Below are positions 4,774 to 46,553 of a DNA stretch of 46,553 nt, piece by piece. The notes under the pieces are model-generated. The model was not told where the DNA came from, did not search any database, and saw only the letters and a program-made list of their open reading frames with translations. Numbering within the stretch: the first letter of the stretch is position 1; each line of letters starts with the position of its first letter. The position numbers and the translations under genes were made by a program. Origin of the DNA: Escherichia phage vB_EcoS_IME542; sequence record MK372342; one strand, written 5' to 3'.

Positions 4774-5189
4774 AAATCACAGATAAAGAAGATTACATTG
4801 AGTTTTACCCTGGTGCTGTAAAGTCATGCCCAAAGGAGGACGACGAACAGATCTTTTGCTCTGATTGGGTTAAGTATCATTACCCTCAGATTGTTTACTG
4901 GCACACAGTTAATGAAGGGATGAAATCAATTGGGTCAGCAAGGAAGGATGCAGCTAAAGGGCTCCTTAAGGGCGTATCAGACTGCTTATTCCTGATACCT
5001 GAATCACTTCGCGGAAAGTACCCTTTCGGAGCCATAGAGCTAAAGAGGGCTGGCAAAACCCAGGCTAGCACAGTCAGCGACGAACAAAAGTCTTTCCTTA
5101 AAAGCGTAAGAGAATCAGGTGGTTTCTCCGCTGTAGCCTATGGGCGCGAAGGTTTTCTTGCAGCATTCAAAGAAATGATTTCAAAATAG
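4770..5189 (+). CDS. VRR-NUC / PD-(D/E)XK-like nuclease
   Basis: D-x(n)-E-L-K arrangement (DCLFL...GAIELKRAGK); 139 aa; stop TAG lies inside the TAGCA box. Confidence 0.5.
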   Translation: MKITDKEDYIEFYPGAVKSCPKEDDEQIFCSDWVKYHYPQIVYWHTVNEGMKSIGSARKDAAKGLLKGVSDCLFLIPESLRGKYPFGAIELKRAGKTQASTVSDEQKSFLKSVRESGGFSAVAYGREGFLAAFKEMISK

Positions 5190-11699: not shown

Positions 11700-11770
11700 C
11701 CTTTCGTTGTTTCGTTTCGATGGAAAGATAATACCGCATCCTTGCGATTTCGTTTTAGCAATTCGTGCTA
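11700..11770 (-). promoter_or_regulatory. boxed promoter element (perfect TAGCAcgaatTGCTA, hairpin CGCA-agga-TGCG, TATTAT, CATCGAAACGAAA)
   Basis: Read directly on minus strand. Confidence 0.55.
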
Positions 11771-28948: not shown

Positions 28949-29197
28949 ATGAATAACGTTAAAAACATCATCAAACTTGCTGCAGTTCTTGTTGCTTTTT
29001 ATGCAGTAGTTCAGATTGTTAACCCAACTGGTGAGGCTGATGCCAATAGCAAGGCAAACAAATATACCGTTGAGTTCGCTAAAGCTGAGCGAGCATGTCA
29101 GGAGCTTGTGGGTAGTAAAGTTGACCAAATCATGAAATATGGCAAAGAGGTCTGCAAGGACTCAGCTGCTAAGATTGCAAAAGAAAACACTAAGTAA
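28949..29197 (+). CDS. small secreted or membrane-anchored protein (possible moron)
   Basis: N-terminal hydrophobic IIKLAAVLVAFYAVVQIV; own boxed promoter; inserted between major tail and chaperone genes. Confidence 0.45.
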   Translation: MNNVKNIIKLAAVLVAFYAVVQIVNPTGEADANSKANKYTVEFAKAERACQELVGSKVDQIMKYGKEVCKDSAAKIAKENTK

Positions 29198-35943: not shown

Positions 35944-38900
35944 ATGGCACAAATGATCAAAACAAACATGAGGCTTTGTGATATGGCTGAAGAAATTAAG
36001 ATTTATGGTGCCAAAGGCGGTAGCCAGAAGCAGCATCAACCAGTGGAGCAGGAAGATAACCTAATTTCACTTAACAAGGTTAAGGTATTACTTGCGGTTG
36101 CTGACGGAGAGGTGGACCCTAACTTCTCATTGAAGGATTTATACCTTGCTGATGTTCCAGTGCAAAATCAGAATGGCACCTACAACTATGAAGGTGTTCG
36201 CGCCGAGTTTCGCGCTGGTACGCAATATCAGGACTATATCGCTGGGCTTGACGGTGCGAACTCAGAGATTCAGGCTTCCAGGGAAATTACGAACGATACC
36301 CCGTACATCATTGCGGTTAATAACAGCCAGCTTTCGGCGATTCGAGTTAAACTCTTTTGGCCTCGACTGATCAAACAAGAAAGTAACGGAGACCTGAATG
36401 GCACAACTTGCGAGTATGCAATTGACTTGTCAGTTAATGGTGGGGCATATCAGCAATATACTCGCGGAGTTGCAAACGGGAAAACAACAACTGGTTACGA
36501 CCGTAGCATACGTGTAAACCTTCCCGCTGAATTTGATAGTGCGCTGGTTCGCATCCGTAAGATTACAGCAGACTCAACAAGTAGCACGCTGGTTAATGGA
36601 ATGCAGATTACAACCTATCAGGAAGTAATTGACGCTAAATTCCGCTATCCGCTTACTGCTCTGGTTTACGTTGAGTTCGGCTCTGACCTGTTCCCTAACG
36701 GAATCCCAACAATCTCTATCAAGAAGCGATGGAAGTTAATTCAGGTCCCAACAAACTATAACCCTGAAAGCAGAACTTACAGCGGCACATGGAATGGTTT
36801 ATTTAAAATGGCGTGGTCAAATAACCCAGCATGGGTTCTTTATGACTTAGTGACAAACCGCAGATATGGACTTGACCAGCGAGAGTTAGGTGTAGAGATT
36901 GATAAGTGGGGCTTGTATGAAGCTGCACAATTCTGCGACCAGATGGTTCCAGATGGTAAAGGTGGAATGGAACCTCGTTATCTTTGCGATATGGTTGTAC
37001 AGAATAAGGTTGAGGCATACACACTAATTCGTGATGTCTGCTCAATATTCCGCGGCCTGACATTCTATGATGGCGAAAAGATTGGCATCGTAGTTGATAA
37101 GCCTCGCAATCCATCTTACATCTTCACGAACGATAACGTTGTAAATGGATTATTCAGCCGCACATTCGCTAGCGAAAAGAGTCTTTACACTACTGCGAAC
37201 GTACAGTTTGATGATGTGGAGAATAACTATCAGCAAGATGTAGAGCCGGTATTTGAATTAGAGGCAACCCGCCGCTTTGGATTTAACCCTGTTGATTTAA
37301 CTGCTATTGGCTGCACTCGCAGAAGTGAAGCAAACAGGCGCGGAAGATGGCTTCTAAAAACCAACCTGAGAAGCGAAACTATCAGCTTCACAACTGGGTT
37401 AGAAGGTATGATTCCGATGATTGGCGAGGTTATTGCGGTTAATGACGCAGCATGGTCGAGCAACTATCAGTTAAACCTTTCTGGTCGAATCGAATCTGTG
37501 CAAGGATTGCAGGTTTTTACTCCGTTTAAAGTTGATGCAGCACCTGGTGACAGAATCCTGCTTAACAAACCGGACGGTAGCCCAGAGGCTAGAACTATCG
37601 CAAGCGTATCTGAAGATGGTAGAACTATTAACCTGAACACGGCGTTCAGTTTTGTAGCTCAGCAAGATACTGTTTTCGCAATCGACAAGGACAATCTGGC
37701 ACTTCAGCAATATGTTGTGACTGGTATTCAAAAAGCAGATACTGATGGTCAGGACTCGTTCCAGTACACAATTACTGCTGTTGAGTACGACCCGAACAAA
37801 TATGACGAGATTGACTACGGAGTTAACATTATAGACCGCCCTACTTCAATTGTAGAACCTGACAGATTGTCGCCACCTGAGAACTTAACAGTATCAAGCT
37901 ACAGCAAGGTTGTTCAGGGTTTATCGGTTGAGACGATGGTAATAGGGTGGGACAAAGCGCCATACGCTAAAACATACAATGTTCAGTGGAGGAAAGAGAA
38001 TGGTAACTGGATTAACGTACCCAGAACAGCTAGCACAGAAGTTGATATTGAAGGTATTTACGCAGGAATCTATGACGTTAGGGTTCGCAGCGTATCAGAT
38101 ACTGAAAACGTCTCTGCCTGGTCTGATATTGTAACTGTATCGCTAACTGGCAAGATTGGTCGCCCATCTGCGCCAACCGTTATTACTGCTTCAACTGATG
38201 AGGTGTTTGGCATTCGTGTTAAATGGGGATTCCCTGAAGGCTCAGGCGACACAGCTTACACTGAACTTCAGCAAGTTGCTGATAACGGTGACGGTACTTA
38301 CAACCCTGATAACGCGAGCTTGCTGACGCTGCTTCCTTATCCAGCCTATGAATACTGGCACACGCCAATTCAGCCAGGCAAGGTTATCTGGTATCGTGCA
38401 AGATTAATTGACAGAATCGGCAACACCTCTGACTGGTCTGATTTCGCTAGAGGTATGAGCACTGACGATGCCAACATTATCAACGAATATATCAAAGTTG
38501 ACATTGAAGGTTCGGAAGGATTCAAATATCTCGAACAGAATGCGATTCAAAAGAATCAGGACATTCAGAATCAGGCTGAGGCAATCATCGAGAACGCATT
38601 AGCAAATGACACTGATGTTCGCCGCATGACAAAGGAGAATGGTGCCAGAAAGGCTGAATACGTTCAGGCGGTGAATCTTATTGCTGATGAAACTCAGGCG
38701 CGCGTAGAGGCTCTCACGCAGCTTAAAGCGCAGATTGATGGTGAGGTTGTAGCTTCCATAACTGAGGTTCAGACGGCACTAGCCACCGAAACAGAAGCAA
38801 GGACCACTGCCGATACTGCTTTGAGAGCTCAGCTTGGAGATACTCAGGCTGCACTTAATGAAAAACTTGACTCATGGGTTGATGCGGAATCCGCTGGCGC

Positions 38901-39372
38901 TCAGTACGGTGTTAAGTTAGGTCTAAAATATAATGGGGTTGAGTATAGCGCAGGGATGAGCATGGAGCTTGTTGGCAGTGGTACTGGCGTTAAGAGTCAG
39001 TTCATCTTTGACGCAAACAGATTCGCTATCAGTAACGGGATTGGATCTGGTTCCGGTCAGTGGTCATTGCCTTTTGTTGTTGAGAGCAACCAGGTGTTCA
39101 TCCAGAGCGCCGTGATCAAGGATGGATCAATCACTAATGCCAAGATTGGTAACAGAATTCAATCAAATAACTACGTTCAAGGAAGTCAGGGGTGGGCTAT
39201 TGATAAATCTGGTTTTGCTGAACTAAGTAATGCCACCGTTAGAGGAAGCCTTTACGCTAACAATGGTAACTTCGCGTTTAACGGAACAGGCAACACTGTT
39301 CAGATTAACGGTAACGGAATCACTGTTAACCTACCAGGTGGAGGAATGGTTGTAGTTGGAGTATGGAGTTAA
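35944..39372 (+). CDS. central tail fiber / host specificity protein, lambda gpJ-like
   Basis: 1142 aa; recognisable gpJ segments (SGTWNGLFKMAWSNNPAWVLYDLVTNRRYG, IDKWGLYEAAQFCDQMVPDGKGGMEPRY, RRGRWLLKTNL). Confidence 0.85.
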   Translation: MAQMIKTNMRLCDMAEEIKIYGAKGGSQKQHQPVEQEDNLISLNKVKVLLAVADGEVDPNFSLKDLYLADVPVQNQNGTYNYEGVRAEFRAGTQYQDYIAGLDGANSEIQASREITNDTPYIIAVNNSQLSAIRVKLFWPRLIKQESNGDLNGTTCEYAIDLSVNGGAYQQYTRGVANGKTTTGYDRSIRVNLPAEFDSALVRIRKITADSTSSTLVNGMQITTYQEVIDAKFRYPLTALVYVEFGSDLFPNGIPTISIKKRWKLIQVPTNYNPESRTYSGTWNGLFKMAWSNNPAWVLYDLVTNRRYGLDQRELGVEIDKWGLYEAAQFCDQMVPDGKGGMEPRYLCDMVVQNKVEAYTLIRDVCSIFRGLTFYDGEKIGIVVDKPRNPSYIFTNDNVVNGLFSRTFASEKSLYTTANVQFDDVENNYQQDVEPVFELEATRRFGFNPVDLTAIGCTRRSEANRRGRWLLKTNLRSETISFTTGLEGMIPMIGEVIAVNDAAWSSNYQLNLSGRIESVQGLQVFTPFKVDAAPGDRILLNKPDGSPEARTIASVSEDGRTINLNTAFSFVAQQDTVFAIDKDNLALQQYVVTGIQKADTDGQDSFQYTITAVEYDPNKYDEIDYGVNIIDRPTSIVEPDRLSPPENLTVSSYSKVVQGLSVETMVIGWDKAPYAKTYNVQWRKENGNWINVPRTASTEVDIEGIYAGIYDVRVRSVSDTENVSAWSDIVTVSLTGKIGRPSAPTVITASTDEVFGIRVKWGFPEGSGDTAYTELQQVADNGDGTYNPDNASLLTLLPYPAYEYWHTPIQPGKVIWYRARLIDRIGNTSDWSDFARGMSTDDANIINEYIKVDIEGSEGFKYLEQNAIQKNQDIQNQAEAIIENALANDTDVRRMTKENGARKAEYVQAVNLIADETQARVEALTQLKAQIDGEVVASITEVQTALATETEARTTADTALRAQLGDTQAALNEKLDSWVDAESAGAQYGVKLGLKYNGVEYSAGMSMELVGSGTGVKSQFIFDANRFAISNGIGSGSGQWSLPFVVESNQVFIQSAVIKDGSITNAKIGNRIQSNNYVQGSQGWAIDKSGFAELSNATVRGSLYANNGNFAFNGTGNTVQINGNGITVNLPGGGMVVVGVWS

Positions 39373-39377
39373 AATAT

Positions 39378-39400
39378 AGCCCCCTTCTGGGGGCTTTTTT
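39378..39400. terminator. terminator hairpin between convergent J gene and minus-strand RBP gene
   Basis: AGCCCCC-ttct-GGGGGCT followed by TTTTTT. Confidence 0.65.
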
Positions 39401-40370
39401 AGTACATGTTTGGTATGTACGGTAACCGCATTGAGATGTTGGTGTTGAATGGGAACCGCGCGCCAGACTGCGTTGAGTAGTTACCATAAACACTTCCTTT
39501 ATGCGCCCTAACCTGACCATTTGACATTGCAACGCCCTTGTATCTAAGGTTGTTGTATCTACCAGTAACCTCAACCATCGCGCCGCACCTTAGTATTGGG
39601 AAAAACCCATTACCTATTGATTGGTATGAGTTGGAAAGCTGGAGGAATCCACTTAGTACAAAAGGTCGCTTGACGCTGGAAAACACTATCTGGCCAGAGG
39701 CGTTTGACATTGTTAAACCAGGCCCTGCGGTTGGTGCTGTATTGTTGAATATAACAAGATCGATAGTTACTGATGCTGATACATTATCAATTCCTGTGTA
39801 GGTATTGTTTCTACATAGTATTCTTTTCCCGTCAAACTCAAGGGTGACATTTGGGTTATTCCACCTTCCAAACGGTATTCCAGTCATCGGGAGTGTATAG
39901 CTTCCATTCACAGTCACAGTTCCGACATACTGAGCAGTCAGGAGTCTACTGTTTGATGTTATTGCAGTGAAGTTAGTCGAATCACTGACAAATATCCCCT
40001 CACTGCCTGGTGATTCACCAAGAACCTCAAAACCTTGCGCACCAAATCCAATCAAACGTCCTGATGAGCCGTTAAAGTTACCTATACTTATCCTTCCAGT
40101 TGAGTTATTGACCCTGGAAAATCCATTCATGAAATAAACCTCAGGTATGAAGTTGAAGTCATAAACGTCAATAGCCTTTGTCGGCAATATGAAGGCCTCA
40201 GATCCTTGAGTCATTGTTAGTCCGAAGTCTCTAGTGCCATTGGCGGAATTAAACGTGGAGTTACTGCTAAGGCTTCCTGTTACTGATGGCGCTCTTAAAC
40301 CTGCAGTTATCTCCATTCTCGGTCTTCCGTCATTCAAGTCTATCAAGATACCCTGAGGCATTATTTCCAC
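39399..40370 (-). CDS. putative receptor-binding protein (antisense, downstream of J)
   Basis: 323 aa Asn/Ser/Thr/Gly-rich protein; co-transcribed with upstream lipoprotein gene; call is by position and composition. Confidence 0.45.
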
Positions 40371-40591
40371 TCCTTGGTGCCATGATCTTTAACTGATCCA
40401 GAGAAGTTTTTGATACCATCCCAGCGGATATCTGTTTCACCTGAAGCTACAACTACACCTCCTTTCCATTTAGCAACACATGAGCCGTTAACTTCAGTCG
40501 CGCACCAACCGTCAGGTCGGGGTCCGGAAGAACAACCTACAGTCATGATTACTGCTGCCGCGATTATTGCTGATTTGATGAAGTTAGTCAT
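40361..40591 (-). CDS. small lipoprotein, candidate superinfection-exclusion (Cor/Llp-like) protein
   Basis: [22 protein letters not shown] signal peptide with lipobox; 76 aa; AAGGA RBS; boxed promoter upstream. Confidence 0.5.
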
Positions 40592-40609
40592 TTTGTATTC
40601 CTTAGTGAG

Positions 40610-40675
40610 TGTGTTTCGTTTCGATGGAGTAACTATAGCAAAGGATGATTACGGAGTCTTTAGCTATTCGTGCTA
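40610..40675 (-). promoter_or_regulatory. boxed promoter element (box TAGCAcgaatAGCTA, extended -10 TGcTATAGT, CATCGAAACGAAACAC)
   Basis: Read directly on minus strand. Confidence 0.55.
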
Positions 40676-40752
40676 TTGTATACGCGTAACCGATGTAACT
40701 CGGTGTATACAATCTCGTCCGCGGAAAATGGTATACGCGCTGTTACGCCTAG

Positions 40753-40835
40753 TTACGCATTAGTTACATTAAAATATCTATATATATCAACCTTTTACTC
40801 TTATTATTATTATTATTATATATTACTGTGTATAT
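40753..40835 (+). repeat. copy B of ~85 bp direct repeat with (TTA)5, in second divergent non-coding region; flanked by GTATAC-containing repeats
   Basis: TTACGCATTAGTTACATTAAAATATCTATATATATCAACCTTTTACTC(TTA)n; matches 13550..13635. Confidence 0.7.
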
Positions 40836-40986
40836 CATGTAACTACTTCTATAGAGTGTTCCGGTTATAATTTTAATATCATGTGGATTTATACAGTATT
40901 GCGCGGCAGCTATACCGATGCACCCTTAGCGAGAAACGGTATACACGATATACACACTAGTTACATTAAGCTATATCTGGGCCGAG

Positions 40987-41334
40987 ATGCCAGAAAGCGT
41001 AACCATTGGCAATGTCTACACGAAATTACAAGGATTCACGCGTAAGTATGAGTCAACGATTGGCAAAACCAATTGGACTAGCTACCGTGCCGAATATATA
41101 GTTAACCCATCGAAAGCAAACAACCAGAGAGATAGAGAAATGACCTACTACATTATCAAAGAGAAAAACAACGCACTGTTCGGCGATTGCTACTTTGGTG
41201 GCCCTGCTGGATACACAACGGATAAAAACGAGGCTGACAGATTCGAGACCAAAGAAGAAGCCCGCGATGTTCTGACCGGGTGCTTCACTGAAGAAGATTT
41301 GAAATCTGTTAAGGTAGTTAAGGTTAAGGAATAA
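40987..41334 (+). CDS. hypothetical protein (alternative start ATG 41140 with purine-rich RBS)
   Basis: 115 aa ORF; no good RBS at 40987. Confidence 0.4.
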   Translation: MPESVTIGNVYTKLQGFTRKYESTIGKTNWTSYRAEYIVNPSKANNQRDREMTYYIIKEKNNALFGDCYFGGPAGYTTDKNEADRFETKEEARDVLTGCFTEEDLKSVKVVKVKE

Positions 41335-41337
41335 AAT

Positions 41338-42309
41338 ATGGGCTTTAAAGTTTTTACGCGAGAGGAGTTAAGCAGCGAGTCTTACCACTCTGAGACTGAT
41401 CACATCTCTGGCAGTTCACTTGTCGAGATTATCCAGGGTTCTCCAGCTAAGTGGAAGTTCAAGCAGCGAAACAATGATAGTAAGGCGCTTAAGTTTGGCA
41501 CTTTATCTCACTGTATGATTCTAGAACAAGATGTGTTCGATAAAGAGTACTTGCGAGCAACCGACCTTGATGCGATTGATGGTTTAATTACAAGTCAGAC
41601 AGCATTATCGGCAGCACTTAAAAAAGTTGGTGTAGCTGGCACGTCAGGGAAGGGGTATAGCGAGCTTGTAGAGATGATGTATCGCTCTGGTGAGGATTGG
41701 AGTGTTAAATGGTTAATTGAGCAGCAGGAGAGCGCCCAAGCGCTTGTGGAGGGTAAGGAGCTGGTTAGCGCAGCAGACTATGACGAAGTGGTCGCCATGC
41801 GTGAGGTTCTTTGCAATATTCCGGCATATAATAAAATCGTGAATAGCGAAACGGCGCAGAAAGAGTTATCAATATTTGGTGAGATTCTCGGTGTAGGAGT
41901 GAAGATTCGAATAGACCACGTAGATGTAATTGATGGAGTTGTATGCATTACAGACCTGAAGACGACAGCCAGCGCATCACCTCAGGAGTTTGGGAGGCTT
42001 GCATTCAAGCACGGGTATCTCGCAAAAATGGCCCTTCAGCACGATGTTTTCGTCAGGGCTTTTAACGAGAAAAGAAGAACAAAAGTAAGGTTACTTGCAA
42101 TCGAGAAAGAGGCACCTTACTTACCAATGCTTTACAATATTACAGAAGAGCAACTGAAGGTTGGTCGTAGAATGTATCTAGAGGCCCTTGCAACTTACAA
42201 GAAGTGCAAAGAGAATGATGTGTGGCCCGGATATGCGATGGGTGCAACAGAGATTGATTTAGATGTACCTGAGTGGGATATGAGGAAATACAGAGATGAA
42301 CTGGTCTGA
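41338..42309 (+). CDS. recombination exonuclease, PD-(D/E)XK type (putative)
   Basis: IDHVDVIDGVVCITDLKTT resembles D...(D/E)xK nuclease core; located next to Erf-like and SSB genes. Confidence 0.5.
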   Translation: MGFKVFTREELSSESYHSETDHISGSSLVEIIQGSPAKWKFKQRNNDSKALKFGTLSHCMILEQDVFDKEYLRATDLDAIDGLITSQTALSAALKKVGVAGTSGKGYSELVEMMYRSGEDWSVKWLIEQQESAQALVEGKELVSAADYDEVVAMREVLCNIPAYNKIVNSETAQKELSIFGEILGVGVKIRIDHVDVIDGVVCITDLKTTASASPQEFGRLAFKHGYLAKMALQHDVFVRAFNEKRRTKVRLLAIEKEAPYLPMLYNITEEQLKVGRRMYLEALATYKKCKENDVWPGYAMGATEIDLDVPEWDMRKYRDELV

Positions 42310-42787
42310 AATTTTTGATTACGATGGGGTTAATTTGATATGGAAGATAATGAGCGGAACTAGAGGTTGCATTGGTAAAGTTGCTGGAAATGTAAGTAAG
42401 ACTAACGGTTATGTAAGGTTGAGGTACGATGGCAGGGAGCACAAGGTTCACAGAATTATATTGGATATCGTAAATGGTAAAATACCTAGTGGTTTATTTG
42501 TTGATCACATAAATCACATTAGAAATGATAACAGGATTGAGAACTTGCGATTGGTGAATAGGCAAGGAAATGCCATGAATCAGTCATTGAGAAAAACAAA
42601 CAAAACCGGAGTTCTGGGTGTTAGTTGGGTGCCAAGGCTATCAAAATATGTAGCAAGAATGGGTGTGGATGGTTACGAGTATCACATTGGGTGTTTTGAC
42701 TCAATCGAGGAAGCCGCTAGAGCAAGAAAAAGCGAAGAGGTTAAGTTGGGATTTCATAGAAATCACGGAAATAGCACAAATTGCTAA
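42296..42787 (+). CDS. HNH homing endonuclease, paralog 4 of 5
   Basis: MNWSEIFDYDGVNLIWKIM..., VDHINHIRNDNRIENLRLVN, C-terminal GFHRNHGN; overlaps end of exonuclease gene by 14 nt. Confidence 0.85.
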   Translation: MNWSEIFDYDGVNLIWKIMSGTRGCIGKVAGNVSKTNGYVRLRYDGREHKVHRIILDIVNGKIPSGLFVDHINHIRNDNRIENLRLVNRQGNAMNQSLRKTNKTGVLGVSWVPRLSKYVARMGVDGYEYHIGCFDSIEEAARARKSEEVKLGFHRNHGNSTNC

Positions 42788-42843: not shown

Positions 42844-43494
42844 ATGCAAATTTCAGAATCATGCAAATCAATTTTAAACGCGCTACACACTGCAAAAGCA
42901 ATGTTTGCAAAGGCTGAGCGCTCTAAGCAGAACTCGCACCTTAAAAACAAGTATGCAACCTTAGATGATGTTTTAGCAGCCGTTGAGCCTGGTTTGGATG
43001 AGTGTGGTTTGGTTATGTTTCAAAGCGTCCTAGATGACGAGCAAACTAATAGAATGAAGGTTGAGACAAAGCTATTTCATGCTGAGTCAGGAGAGTGGGT
43101 TAGCTTCTTAATGATTGTCCCAATCAGCAAGAATGACGCTCAAGGTTACGGCTCTGCTCTTACATATGCTAGACGCTACGGCATTACAGCAGCTTTAGGT
43201 CTTAGTCAGGCAGATGACGATGGCAATCTCGCAGCTAAAGGTGTTAAAGACTTCAAGCGCGAGCTAGAGAAGTGCAACACGCTTGATGAGTTACGTAAAG
43301 TCTGGAAAGAGGCCAAGCAATCACTAGACGCGGCGGGATGGAAGGTTTTCGAACCTCACATTATCGAGCGCAAGGCAGAGATTGAAGCCAATGCAGCAAC
43401 TGGATTCAACCCAGCAACACCAAAGAAAGTTGCAGAAAAAAGTGGTGCTGACGAAAAGGTTGAAGTAGAATCACAACAAATCGACACATTCTAA
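42844..43494 (+). CDS. erf: Erf-like single-strand annealing protein
   Basis: KNKYATLDDVL and GYGSALTYARRYGITAALGL parallel P22 Erf KYKYRSCEDIL and GATSSYARKYCLNGLFGI. Confidence 0.65.
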   Translation: MQISESCKSILNALHTAKAMFAKAERSKQNSHLKNKYATLDDVLAAVEPGLDECGLVMFQSVLDDEQTNRMKVETKLFHAESGEWVSFLMIVPISKNDAQGYGSALTYARRYGITAALGLSQADDDGNLAAKGVKDFKRELEKCNTLDELRKVWKEAKQSLDAAGWKVFEPHIIERKAEIEANAATGFNPATPKKVAEKSGADEKVEVESQQIDTF

Positions 43495-43535
43495 ATAAAA
43501 CGGGGCTTATGCCCCAACAAAACAGAGAGAAAAGA

Positions 43536-44048
43536 ATGAATGGTAAGAATTTGAGCTTTGAATACTTATCTAAGTTATTCAAAATAGATTCAGATGGAAA
43601 CCTTTGCAGGAGATTCGCGGTAAAAAAGGCTAAGGCCGGATTAGTTGTAGGAAAGCCGGATCATCTTGGTTATATGTCAATATACCAAGACAATAAAAGA
43701 CTAAAAGTGCATCGCATTGCATATTGCGTTAACTCTGGAGAGGATTTGCTAGGTAGCTTTGAGATTGATCATATTGATGGTAATCCATCAAACAACAACG
43801 TTGCAAATTTAAGGAAATGCAATAGGGTAGAAAACCAACAAAACAGTGGTGCCAATAAAAATAATTCACTTGGATATAAAGGTGTTTGCTTACACAAGAA
43901 AACAGGAAAGTACTTCGGTAGATGGATGTACAATAGAAAGTTTTACTCAACAAAGTATCACCTGCTACCTATAGATGCGTACAATGAGTTGTTGGATATA
44001 AAATCAAAGTTTAAATCCGAATTTATAAACGGAGAGGAAATGAAATGA
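43536..44048 (+). CDS. HNH homing endonuclease, paralog 5 of 5 (divergent)
   Basis: EIDHIDGNPSNNNVANLRKCNRVEN; ATG 43536 with purine-rich RBS preferred over track 43509. Confidence 0.75.
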   Translation: MNGKNLSFEYLSKLFKIDSDGNLCRRFAVKKAKAGLVVGKPDHLGYMSIYQDNKRLKVHRIAYCVNSGEDLLGSFEIDHIDGNPSNNNVANLRKCNRVENQQNSGANKNNSLGYKGVCLHKKTGKYFGRWMYNRKFYSTKYHLLPIDAYNELLDIKSKFKSEFINGEEMK

Positions 44049-44509: not shown

Positions 44510-46553
44510 TTAAAAGTTTCTATATACCTCAGTCCACCCCTCTGGCTCTATTAACTCAACCATAATAATGTGTCTAGTTGATTTCAAGGCCACGTCTACT
44601 CCTCCTTTCATATAAAAACTTGAACTAGATTTTAATGTCAAAGTGTTTGATGCAGAAGCTGATGAACTCCTTATTTGTATTTGCATCCCGGCTTCCTCAG
44701 TGTAGCCAGTTATTCCATCTACACTAGAGCTTGCACTATGAGTTAATCTATATTTATTACCGGGATTTGTATTAAATTGTATCTTCTGGTTACTTCCCGA
44801 AACGGTCACATTAACGACAGGATTAATTAATACTCTCGCTAACTGCTTAGTAAACTCAGTTCGACCAACCCCAGAGTTTGGCATTACGGAGTTCCCAATA
44901 TCAAGGTCTGTAGTTCGCGTTGTGTAGTTACGAAGAGCAGTGGTGTTAACTGCAATGTTTTCCACCCACTGGTTACTACCGCCGCCCGCCTCAATATCTA
45001 CCCCACCTGTTTGCGTGGTGTTAAGAAGATAAAACATATTAGAAAAACTAGCATCTTGGCTTCCACATGTATTACCAATAACGCGACATGATGAAAGGCT
45101 GCCTTGTATAAAGAATGCAGCTAAAGGGATGCTTCCGACAGTAATCCAGTCTTCCATGTTGTAATCGTCACTACCATTGAACCCAGCATCAACATGATTA
45201 TCCCTAATGATCATGTTAGGGTTGTTGTTTGTTCCAGAATAATGCCCAATAAAAAACCCACCACGACGTATCCTATTGCCATGACACAACACATGACCTG
45301 CATTTGAACCACCAGTAATTCGAATTCGCCCGTACTCAATTGCGTTATCGCGAATTGTGATTGATGCGGTCGTCAAGTTTGACGCAACAGTTTGCAGTGT
45401 TACACCGCCTCTTATCGTGGCTGTTCCTTCGTACAATGGCTCACACTCGTAAGGGTTGGTTACTGGGATAACTCCAGCACTGCGGAATGTATTGTCATGG
45501 ATTTCCACATACTGCATATTCTGGCCTGACGAGTTTGGTTCTAGATCTATTTCTCCGTAAATAATATTGTCATGTACTTTCAGGCCTACGACGTCGATAA
45601 CAGCCATTGCCAAACGGGATCGTGTGCCGCCACCTGATGCGTCCCAGGATCGAATGCCGTTGCCGTAACGCTCCTTAAGTATGCAATTCCTTACTGTTAC
45701 ATCTCTAGAGAATTTTCCTGTTATTGCGCCATTCTCAAGATCTCCACCAAAATAGATGCAGTCACCGTAGAAGTTATCAATGTAAACATTATCGAAAATG
45801 ACGCTCTTGCATTTATAACCCAACGCGAATGCCTGGTCTCTTTCTCGAGAGGGCGAAGTAGCACCGCCACCGTAACCTATCACCTTCATATTTCGGATGA
45901 TAACGTTGTTCGCAGCATAAAGCCCGAACAATCTTCCAATATCATCGCAATAGAGTTCGGTTGAGAATCCATCCCCCTCAATAATTACATTCTTTAAACC
46001 TGCACCCTCAACACCTAAAGTAACAGCTACGCCACCTGGCTTGTATGTGTTTAGACGCTTAAATCTAAACTTCCCTGACGGGAATCTTAATGTCACATTA
46101 CCTCCGTTGGAAATAACATCATTGATTGCTTCCTGAAGTGCAGTGACGTTATTTGTTCCGTTAGATACGCCAGTGGTGGGATCAAAGTCACCAACAAGAC
46201 CGTAATCTGTAACAAGGTTAATAACTGTATTCTGGTAAAAATCAGCAATCGTAGTCGATAAGTTTGATGTAAGACCGCCCCTTTTCAAATTAATGAGTTC
46301 ACCTCCTCTCTCGGACAAATCATTAATTATTTTTGAGTCAGTCTCATCCCTGGAGTAAACATCAAGGTTCTGCCTTGCTAGTGGCTTGTCAGTTAAGTCT
46401 GATAGCGCCAAGTCTTTTCTTAATAGGTTCTGTATGTCAAGTGACGCCGCATAATCTGCCGCCTCCCGCGCTGATGCAGCTGCCGCATCTTTGTCAGCGG
46501 ATGCGCTGGTTGCACTTGCTGCCGCTGCATTCTTATCGGTGGTCACTTTGGCG
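44510..46553 (-). CDS. lateral tail fiber / tailspike, C-terminal part with predicted beta-helix (pectate-lyase-like) glycan-depolymerase domain; 5' end continues across window edge to 434..1
   Basis: Frame is open to position 46553 (track start 46546 is an internal GTG); Ala-rich N-proximal segment with KPLARQNLDVY; recurring beta-strand motifs (VIIRNM, VTVRNC, ITIRDN, MIIRDN). Confidence 0.75.
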   Translation of the reverse strand, partial: AKVTTDKNAAAASATSASADKDAAAASAREAADYAASLDIQNLLRKDLALSDLTDKPLARQNLDVYSRDETDSKIINDLSERGGELINLKRGGLTSNLSTTIADFYQNTVINLVTDYGLVGDFDPTTGVSNGTNNVTALQEAINDVISNGGNVTLRFPSGKFRFKRLNTYKPGGVAVTLGVEGAGLKNVIIEGDGFSTELYCDDIGRLFGLYAANNVIIRNMKVIGYGGGATSPSRERDQAFALGYKCKSVIFDNVYIDNFYGDCIYFGGDLENGAITGKFSRDVTVRNCILKERYGNGIRSWDASGGGTRSRLAMAVIDVVGLKVHDNIIYGEIDLEPNSSGQNMQYVEIHDNTFRSAGVIPVTNPYECEPLYEGTATIRGGVTLQTVASNLTTASITIRDNAIEYGRIRITGGSNAGHVLCHGNRIRRGGFFIGHYSGTNNNPNMIIRDNHVDAGFNGSDDYNMEDWITVGSIPLAAFFIQGSLSSCRVIGNTCGSQDASFSNMFYLLNTTQTGGVDIEAGGGSNQWVENIAVNTTALRNYTTRTTDLDIGNSVMPNSGVGRTEFTKQLARVLINPVVNVTVSGSNQKIQFNTNPGNKYRLTHSASSSVDGITGYTEEAGMQIQIRSSSASASNTLTLKSSSSFYMKGGVDVALKSTRHIIMVELIEPEGWTEVYRNF

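Follow-up and report, generated by a model that had tools for sequence, protein, structure and literature searches.

A probable LptD receptor-binding module with an exclusion lipoprotein in the T1-like coliphage vB_EcoS_IME542

The DNA of Escherichia phage vB_EcoS_IME542 (sequence record MK372342; the whole stretch of 46,553 nucleotides is referred to below as the window) carries, on the minus strand just downstream of the gene for its J-like tail protein, a pair of genes that we analysed for their likely role in receptor recognition. It is very probable that the pair constitutes the terminal-receptor module of a T1-like coliphage (Drexlerviridae, Braunvirinae), made up of a receptor-binding protein (RBP) directed at LptD and an exclusion lipoprotein. 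Modules of this type, their LptD receptor and the mechanism of exclusion are already known from genetic work in 2021 and structures in 2025, and genomes nearly identical to that of IME542 are present in GenBank. The remaining uncertainty concerns the exact specificity of this allele and its putative promoter.

The gene pair downstream of J

The arrangement of the genes can be read directly from the list of open reading frames (ORFs) and the minus-strand sequence. The J-like gene (35944-39372, plus strand), encoding the central tail fibre or tip attachment protein, converges with a two-gene minus-strand unit that extends from 40591 to 39399. The first gene of this unit (40361-40591) encodes a 76-residue lipoprotein and the second (39399-40361) the RBP. 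The stop codon of the former (TAA, 40363-40361) and the start codon of the latter (ATG, 40361-40359; its stop is the TAA at 39401-39399) share one base in the string TAATG (junction sequence GCACCAAGGAGTGGAAATAATG), and a Shine-Dalgarno (SD) sequence, AAGGAG, lies on the minus strand at 40370-40375, within the 3' end of the lipoprotein gene and 8 nt before the RBP start. The overlap and the internal SD indicate that the two genes are translationally coupled, and they identify the lipoprotein gene as immediately upstream of, and co-transcribed with, the gene for its cognate RBP. Annotations of Rtp, Bas02, TR1, OzMSK and ETEP102 show this 1-nt overlap too. An earlier note on this DNA had recognized the overlap of stop and start codons and had given the larger protein 323 residues. 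The overlap stands; the length does not, as it arises from an in-frame GTG at 40370. Since every homologue begins at the ATG at 40361 (MPQGILID...), as do the matching PDB chain and the annotated proteins of TR1, Rtp and OzMSK, the RBP is 320 residues long.

The gap between the convergent J and RBP genes amounts to 26 nt and is occupied by a GC-rich hairpin (39378-39395; 7-bp stem with 6 GC pairs, loop of 4) that has T-runs on each strand, a bidirectional intrinsic terminator by its features. Terminator-like sites numbered 4 against 1.0 ± 0.9 expected, and the ETEP102 record has terminators annotated at the same junction. Lying 26 nt beyond J in convergent orientation, the RBP gene has the position that defines the LptD RBP family, and the same layout, with an overlapping lipoprotein gene, is found in Rtp, Bas01, Bas02, Bas18, OzMSK, ETEP102, TR1, CJ19, 50EP and phiEB49. 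Both ORFs are real genes, given their Pfam scores, the hundreds of phage homologues (tblastn returned 369 phage records with a homologue of the larger protein and 287 with one of the lipoprotein) and the mostly synonymous changes that separate them from phiEB49. Relative to that phage the RBP gene shows 123 synonymous and 27 non-synonymous codon differences, and the lipoprotein gene 17 nucleotide differences, 17 of 17 synonymous and none non-synonymous.

The membership of the RBP in a known family is clear. The profile search that the earlier note had proposed gave a match to PF20051 (DUF6453) of 469 bits against a cut-off of 25, spanning residues 4-297 of the 320, and the PHROGs scan assigned the protein to phrog_1265 (E=1.1e-118). 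In a search of all PDB chains, residues 2-320 aligned with residues 2-321 of 9RPT_C (E=4.9e-68), the RBP of phage Oekolampad (Bas18), which is also chain C of entries 9RPW and 9RQI. Identity is 97.8% to the RBP of TR1 (the value also given in the TR1 paper), 91.6% to that of phiEB49, 64.9% to OzMSK, 46.7% to Bas20, 45.8% to Rtp44, 44.5% to Bas02 and 42.3% to Bas18; the alignments with OzMSK, Bas20, Bas02 and Bas18 span 310-319 of the 320 residues (319 for OzMSK). A recent preprint takes more than 30% identity at about full coverage to RBPs of LptD-dependent phages as the mark of an LptD RBP (bioRxiv 10.64898/2026.04.02.716166). The IME542 protein exceeds that identity at nearly full coverage and is therefore a member of the LptD family by this standard. 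Conserved between it and the Oekolampad RBP are the N-terminal motif MxxGIxIDxNDGRPxMxITAGLR and the C-terminal IPNMY, and its Gln298 aligns with Oekolampad Gln299, a residue that hydrogen-bonds Ser350 of LptD (PMC12685063). As had been noticed before, the protein is rich in Asn, Ser, Thr and Gly, which together make up 40% of its residues; its ORF translation contains neither a signal peptide nor a hydrophobic segment.

The 76-residue product had been described as an antisense lipoprotein with signal peptide and lipobox TVGC, and this description holds for the ORF at 40591-40361. Read from the sequence without a dedicated predictor, the signal peptide comprises Lys6, hydrophobic residues 7-16 and the lipobox M-T-V-G-C20, with Ser21 at position +2. 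Lipoprotein sorting to the outer membrane goes with a residue other than Asp at +2. The Pfam scan assigned the protein to PF24052, "Phage lipoprotein family", with 121.7 bits against a cut-off of 27, and the PHROG scan to phrog_4281, with a weak match to phrog_902 (unknown function). Its counterpart in the PDB is Rtp45 (9RPS_D; E=2.1e-35), to which it is 72.4% identical over 76 residues; the figures for other relatives are 100% for TR1 and phiEB49, 77.6% for OzMSK and 40% for the Oekolampad lipoprotein. Cys20, Cys30 and Cys38 of Rtp45 are all kept, the stretch W-C30-ATEVNGS-C38 aligning with W-C30-ATQASGV-C38 of Rtp45, in whose structure Cys30 and Cys38 form a disulfide (PMC12685063).

LptD as the predicted receptor

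Homologues of both proteins provide the basis for assigning a receptor: for them, LptD dependence, RBP-LptDE and Rtp45-LptDE structures and a steric mechanism of exclusion are established. In small siphophages, allelic "RBP loci" lie directly downstream of gpJ, in many cases together with an exclusion gene, and each type of allele corresponds to one receptor; the type present in Rtp, Bas01, Bas02 and Bas18 corresponds to LptD, with resistance mapping to deletions in LptD loops (Maffei et al. 2021; PMC8594841). Mutations in lptD give resistance to Bas02, Bas18 and Bas20, and JNUWD, whose allele could be closer to this one, is a further phage for which lptD resistance mutations are on record. 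OzMSK was tested on lptD mutants, and deletion of LptD loop 11 made BL21(DE3) resistant (Black et al. 2025; PMC13035648). The GenBank record of this phage lists a putative LptD RBP "based on experimental evidence", and the RBP of IME542 itself was modelled and listed among predicted LptD binders (PMC13035648). Finally, a screen of 255 coliphages, released as a preprint in 2026, distinguished four unrelated RBP families at the locus, for FhuA, BtuB, LptD and YncD, and all LptD-family RBPs more than 30% identical mapped to LptD (bioRxiv 10.64898/2026.04.02.716166). LptD, which the earlier note had named as one of several candidate receptors, can now be predicted specifically from family membership; the reading of the pair as an RBP with a receptor-masking lipoprotein is likewise supported, by the matches to 9RPT_C and 9RPS_D and by the published LptD genetics.

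The structures suggest how such a module operates. The Oekolampad RBP was solved on the extracellular side of the lipopolysaccharide (LPS) translocon LptDE, inserted into the LptD lumen, where it touches extracellular loops (EL) 3-5 and EL11 and keeps LptD open (Dunbar et al. 2025; PMC12685063). Rtp45 docks on LptDE from the periplasmic side, and its hairpin pushes EL4 outward by up to 20 Å (PMC12685063); because EL4 is displaced, the RBP is unable to bind. For the IME542 allele, LptD specificity, location in the virion, exclusion activity and promoter use are predictions. J would presumably be the docking platform for the RBP, whose variable loops would insert into the extracellular side of LptDE (EL3-5 and EL11), an event expected to trigger irreversible adsorption. 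After export and lipidation at Cys20, the 76-residue protein would be sorted to the outer membrane and reside in its inner leaflet. On the periplasmic face of LptD it would dock between LptE and LptM and push its beta-hairpin up the lumen; the resulting displacement of EL4 would prevent binding of the RBP. The infected cell would thereby be protected from superinfection, and the progeny would escape inactivation on cell debris. Transcription of the operon would run leftward, starting from a phage-specific promoter element (40675-40613) and stopping at the bidirectional terminator common with J.

Comparison with the best-studied relatives shows both the kinship and the distinctness of the allele. 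The Rtp44/Rtp45 module (Rtp, Bas01, Bas02; Drexlerviridae, Braunvirinae) has the same layout, the 1-nt overlap and a conserved upstream leader. Relative to Rtp and its BASEL relatives, the lipoprotein is 72-74% and J as a whole 93-94% identical, whereas the RBP reaches only 45-46% and the last ~210 residues of J 64-86%; the module of the window thus represents a different allele on an Rtp-like backbone. Its operon also differs from those of Bas01, Bas02 and OzMSK in having no Dcm methylase gene inside it. The RBP of Oekolampad is homologous over its full length (42% identity), but this phage belongs to another genus, Dhillonvirus, has other loops and carries a lipoprotein only 40% identical. 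OzMSK (MSK) is the closest experimentally LptD-dependent relative that we found (RBP 64.9%, lipoprotein 77.6%, same orientation and overlap); it differs in that a DNA methylase gene separates the promoter region from the lipoprotein gene and in a 5-residue Gly-rich insertion in the lipoprotein. TR1 plates on BL21(DE3) as well as on mutants of this strain in ompF, tsx, ompA, fadL and LPS (TR1 paper). An essential receptor, not one of the usual non-essential set, would be consistent with this, although the result does not prove it.

Several points weigh against the assignment to LptD or against parts of the scheme outlined above. The closest allele with receptor experiments, the OzMSK RBP, is only 65% identical, and the loops that contact the receptor are the least conserved parts of the protein. 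Four substitutions in the RBP are lineage-specific, including G268R in the otherwise well-conserved GGYN motif. TR1 fails on MG1655 and DH5alpha, whereas other LptD phages infect K-12 (TR1 paper); restriction, the LPS core or a difference in LptD are candidate causes. Published complex models of the LptD RBP family made with AlphaFold 3 (AF3) proved inaccurate (PMC12685063). Exclusion has a structural demonstration for Rtp45, and the literature examined, available to us in part, yielded no in vivo exclusion assay for the lipoprotein family. The promoter of the operon, finally, is assigned from its sequence pattern only.

Some of these points would fit a tail-tip RBP of the same fold whose allele recognizes a receptor other than LptD, or requires a second protein receptor, an explanation that we regard as unlikely. 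The distance to the nearest validated relative and the variability of the loops leave room for it, as do the unusual host range of TR1, which infects BL21 but not K-12 strains, and the precedent of Bas01, a member of the same phage group that requires both NupG and LptD (bioRxiv 10.64898/2026.04.02.716166). Yet the 255-phage survey knows of no LptD-family RBP above 30% identity that mapped elsewhere, and the RBPs of Bas18, Bas02, Bas20 and OzMSK, while only 33-47% identical to one another, all use LptD. The NupG-associated insertion specific to the J protein of Bas01 was not found when the J of the window was compared, and the lipoprotein inherited along with the RBP is 72% identical to the LptD-binding Rtp45.

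The logic of a small lipoprotein beside an RBP is equally that of the Cor- or Llp-type pairs acting on a TonB-dependent transporter such as FhuA (T1, phi80, T5), and one GenBank record does name the neighbouring lipoprotein "Cor superinfection exclusion protein". The parallel with pb5 and Llp of T5, drawn in the earlier note, is apt as regards function: there, too, a monomeric tip RBP is paired with a small outer-membrane lipoprotein that blocks the receptor from the periplasmic side. The receptors differ, however, and Llp acts through long-range allostery in FhuA where Rtp45 displaces EL4 sterically (PMC12685063). Homology to pb5 or Llp was not detected among all PDB chains (E<=0.01 for the RBP, E<=1 for the lipoprotein), where both proteins match LptDE-bound structures instead. 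At E<=0.1 the Pfam matches were solely PF24052 and PF20051; for the lipoprotein, the Pfam and PHROG scans gave only PF24052, phrog_4281 and the weak phrog_902, the sequence of Cor itself not being compared directly. Infection by Rtp is reportedly independent of FhuA and TonB. A pair directed at such a transporter is thus most improbable, and the two proteins appear to work like pb5/Llp without belonging to that family, the likeness being functional only.

There is equally little to recommend the idea that the 320-residue protein is a host-expressed "membrane protein" or moron outside the virion. It derives from database labels, the protein being termed "membrane protein" in PHROG 1265 and many RefSeq records and filed under "moron, auxiliary metabolic gene and host takeover". 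These labels conflict with the solved homologue, a soluble tail-tip RBP, and are outdated. The protein's lack of a signal peptide or hydrophobic segment speaks against a membrane location, and the position and allele of its gene track receptor specificity (PMC8594841; bioRxiv 10.64898/2026.04.02.716166). An LptD-directed RBP with its exclusion lipoprotein is therefore the interpretation that we retain.

Exchange and divergence of the module

The boundaries of the module extend into J. This protein (phrog_31; PF24801, PF13550 and PF09327) is 93.6% identical to Rtp43 overall, with a Phage_Tail_Tip domain placed by Pfam at residues 971-1109. Up to residue ~917 its identity to Rtp43 and Bas02 is 94-100%; from there to residue 1130 the figures are 92-98% for CJ19 and ETEP102 and 64-86% for Rtp43. 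J is thus mosaic, with a recombination junction near codon ~917. Because its tail is CJ19/ETEP102-like and its upstream part Rtp/Bas02-like, the tip of J (the last ~210 residues, from about 38730 to 39372 on the plus strand) has been inherited along with the genes for RBP and lipoprotein. This allele of the module occurs in three genera of Drexlerviridae (Christensenvirus, Nouzillyvirus and Lindendrivevirus), which agrees with published reports of horizontally exchanged RBP loci and of co-variation between J tip and RBP (PMC8594841; bioRxiv 10.64898/2026.04.02.716166). As to the other end of J, the ATG at 35944 gives 1142 residues, and the homologues of TR1, phiEB49 and Rtp43 have 1129, 1129 and 1136; these lengths suggest that the true start lies later, near the ATG at 35980.

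In GenBank the allele is represented by TR1, CJ19, TH21, 50EP, phiEB49 and IME542, the last traced through the literature; the records of the other five annotate the genes merely as "DUF6453 family protein", "hypothetical protein" or "membrane protein". TR1 (Drexlerviridae; Braunvirinae; Christensenvirus) is 99.4% identical in nucleotides over the 1.5-kb locus and 99.6% over 6.5 kb, and CJ19 and TH21 are 97.6% and 96.8% identical over the locus. The few differences from TR1 are of an unusual kind. Between 36800 and 40361, the 3' part of J shows 1 synonymous and 9 non-synonymous changes, and the RBP 0 synonymous and 7 non-synonymous (E116A, I123L, M159V, K179E, M218I, R268G and Q298K), an excess that contrasts with the 123:27 ratio relative to phiEB49 (Fisher p=1.3e-5). 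Glu116, Met159, Lys179 and Arg268 are private to the window, and Arg268 replaces the second Gly of GGYN, a residue that most relatives keep. In TR1, Lys298 occupies the position of the LptD-contacting Gln299 of Oekolampad. The ratio of 16 non-synonymous to 1 synonymous change in J and RBP may capture an adaptation of receptor recognition still in progress.

Distant or variant homologues of the module are found in the records of phiEco32, Bas89, Bas93, EP335, PY54, TAH8 and Bas20. In phiEco32-like podoviruses, DUF6453 homologues (23-28% identity) and lipoprotein homologues (40-50%) lie tens of kb apart. The Klebsiella webervirus TAH8 has the RBP gene co-oriented with J and no lipoprotein gene beside it, and in the Nonagvirus Bas20 the RBP gene likewise stands without a neighbouring lipoprotein gene; a DUF6453 homologue is also present in the temperate Yersinia phage PY54. 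Because the podoviruses, TAH8 and Bas20 deviate in this way, the pairing of RBP and lipoprotein is not obligatory across the family. Elsewhere in the window, three HNH_3 endonuclease genes (42296-42787, 43509-44048 and 1442-1921) are interspersed among recombination and replication genes, their neighbours encoding a PDDEXK exonuclease (41338-42309), Erf (42844-43494) and a primase (522-1445). A 678-residue ORF at 44510-46546 on the minus strand has no Pfam match; its position is that at which relatives carry their lateral tail fibre or tailspike gene.

A putative promoter cassette and the operon leader

The boxed promoter that the earlier note had placed ahead of the operon could not be identified as such. 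Scanning of 39300-41100 with the sigma-70 consensus gave 5 matches against 5.0 ± 1.9 expected and supported no particular promoter. One match, GTTACA-17-TATAAT at 40843-40815 on the minus strand (10/12), is a putative distal site ~225 nt upstream of the lipoprotein ATG, in a non-coding block strongly conserved in Rtp, ETEP102 and phiEB49. Among these phages ~270 nt upstream of the lipoprotein gene are conserved far beyond the coding regions, and the leader matches 209 phage records. Two matches, rsmX and GcvB, both at chance level and far under their gathering scores, were all that an Rfam search of 39300-41100 at E<=1 returned, and folding of the 236-nt leader gave z=-0.53, no evidence of a stable structure.

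A better candidate lies at 40675-40613 on the minus strand. In order, this probable operon promoter comprises the inverted repeat TAGCACGAATAGCTA (40675-40661), 23 nt, TGc-TATAGT (-10 at 40637-40632), 4 nt and the 15-mer CCATCGAAACGAAAC (40627-40613), and is followed by the SD AAGGA (40603-40599) and the lipoprotein ATG at 40591. The element is invariant in Rtp, phiEB49 and ETEP102. The 15-mer occurs in 7 copies in the window at <=2 mismatches, against 0.08 expected, and the aligned copies share the pattern TAGCAC-N4-TGYTA, 22-23 nt, TATAGT or TATTAT, 4 nt, YCATCGAAACGA, 10-20 nt, SD and ATG. The window holds at least 11 copies of the cassette, whose core after the -10 can be written as YCATCGAAACGAAAC or, as an initial transcribed sequence, (C)CATCGAAACGAAAC; the inverted repeats start at 5187, 15673, 16313, 20249, 28873, 32889 and 42772 on the plus strand and at 11756, 12900, 13271 and 40661 on the minus strand. 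One of the copies precedes an ORF at 28949-29197, which we rejected as a second exclusion lipoprotein: its N-terminus is signal-like and has no lipobox Cys.

In IMG/VR, 43 of 45 distinct instances have the inverted repeat 22-23 nt upstream of TATAGT, and the remaining 2 carry TTGACA-18-TATAGT in place of the repeat. These instances support TATAGT as the true -10 and put the repeat near -42, where class II activators typically bind. The cassette is also found in Klebsiella weberviruses and in EBPL, a T4-like Enterobacter phage; Rfam has no entry for it, and its motif strings were found in no paper of the literature available to us. A conserved 157-residue protein encoded at 1973-2446 on the minus strand, with a sub-threshold Cro-like helix-turn-helix, is a candidate regulator. 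The Rtp genome paper reportedly proposed Rtp52 in connection with ten conserved inverted repeats.

The region between the divergent operons (40680-40975), much of it invariant in Rtp, ETEP102 and phiEB49, has repeats of its own: three exact copies of TAGTTACAT and a fourth that departs from it at one position, 4 of the 9 GTATAC sites in the window, a 24-nt sequence repeated directly at 40754-40777 and 40951-40974 (83%) and a nested hairpin ATTGTATAC...GTATACAAT at 40675-40713. These repeats may be operators or a second promoter. The GTATAC-N20-GTATAC pair and the 9-mer TAGTTACAT were discarded as genome-wide elements, being clustered in 40680-40970 and not repeated elsewhere in the genome. Within the leader, comparison of an (AAT)n microsatellite (40800-40820) with TR1 shows a difference of exactly one 3-nt unit; for the other aligned relatives the difference is 1-2 nt. 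Farther on, a -10 with the core CCATCGAAAG and no inverted repeat lies at 41107-41142 on the plus strand, inside a 115-residue ORF (40987-41334). An SD-like GAGA and an ATG at 41140 (MTYYIIKEK...) come after it, and the real gene there may be the 64-residue C-terminal part in place of the 115-residue ORF annotated in TR1.

It is tempting, if distinctly tentative, to take these observations further: the operon promoter would be a copy of a little-studied regulatory cassette, consisting of an inverted repeat near -42, TATAGT and a near-invariant initial transcribed sequence. If this were true, expression of the RBP and of the exclusion gene would depend on an uncharacterized activator, for which the 157-residue protein is a candidate, on a signal at the RNA level in the common leader, or on both, and the cassette would be one that moves between unrelated phage families. 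As a separate matter, the differences from TR1 could represent ongoing adaptive change in receptor recognition.

The foregoing predicts that the IME542 allele has the essential protein LptD for its terminal receptor, and therefore that resistance of the fhuA (tonA) or porin-mutant type would not stop the phage; deletion of LptD loop 11 would be a likely route to resistance. The practical value of the finding lies in annotation, as the "membrane protein" and moron labels attached to DUF6453 in PHROGs and RefSeq prove out of date. The promoter cassette, the mosaic tip of J and the excess of non-synonymous change offer modest leads for the study of gene regulation and host-range evolution in T1-like phages.

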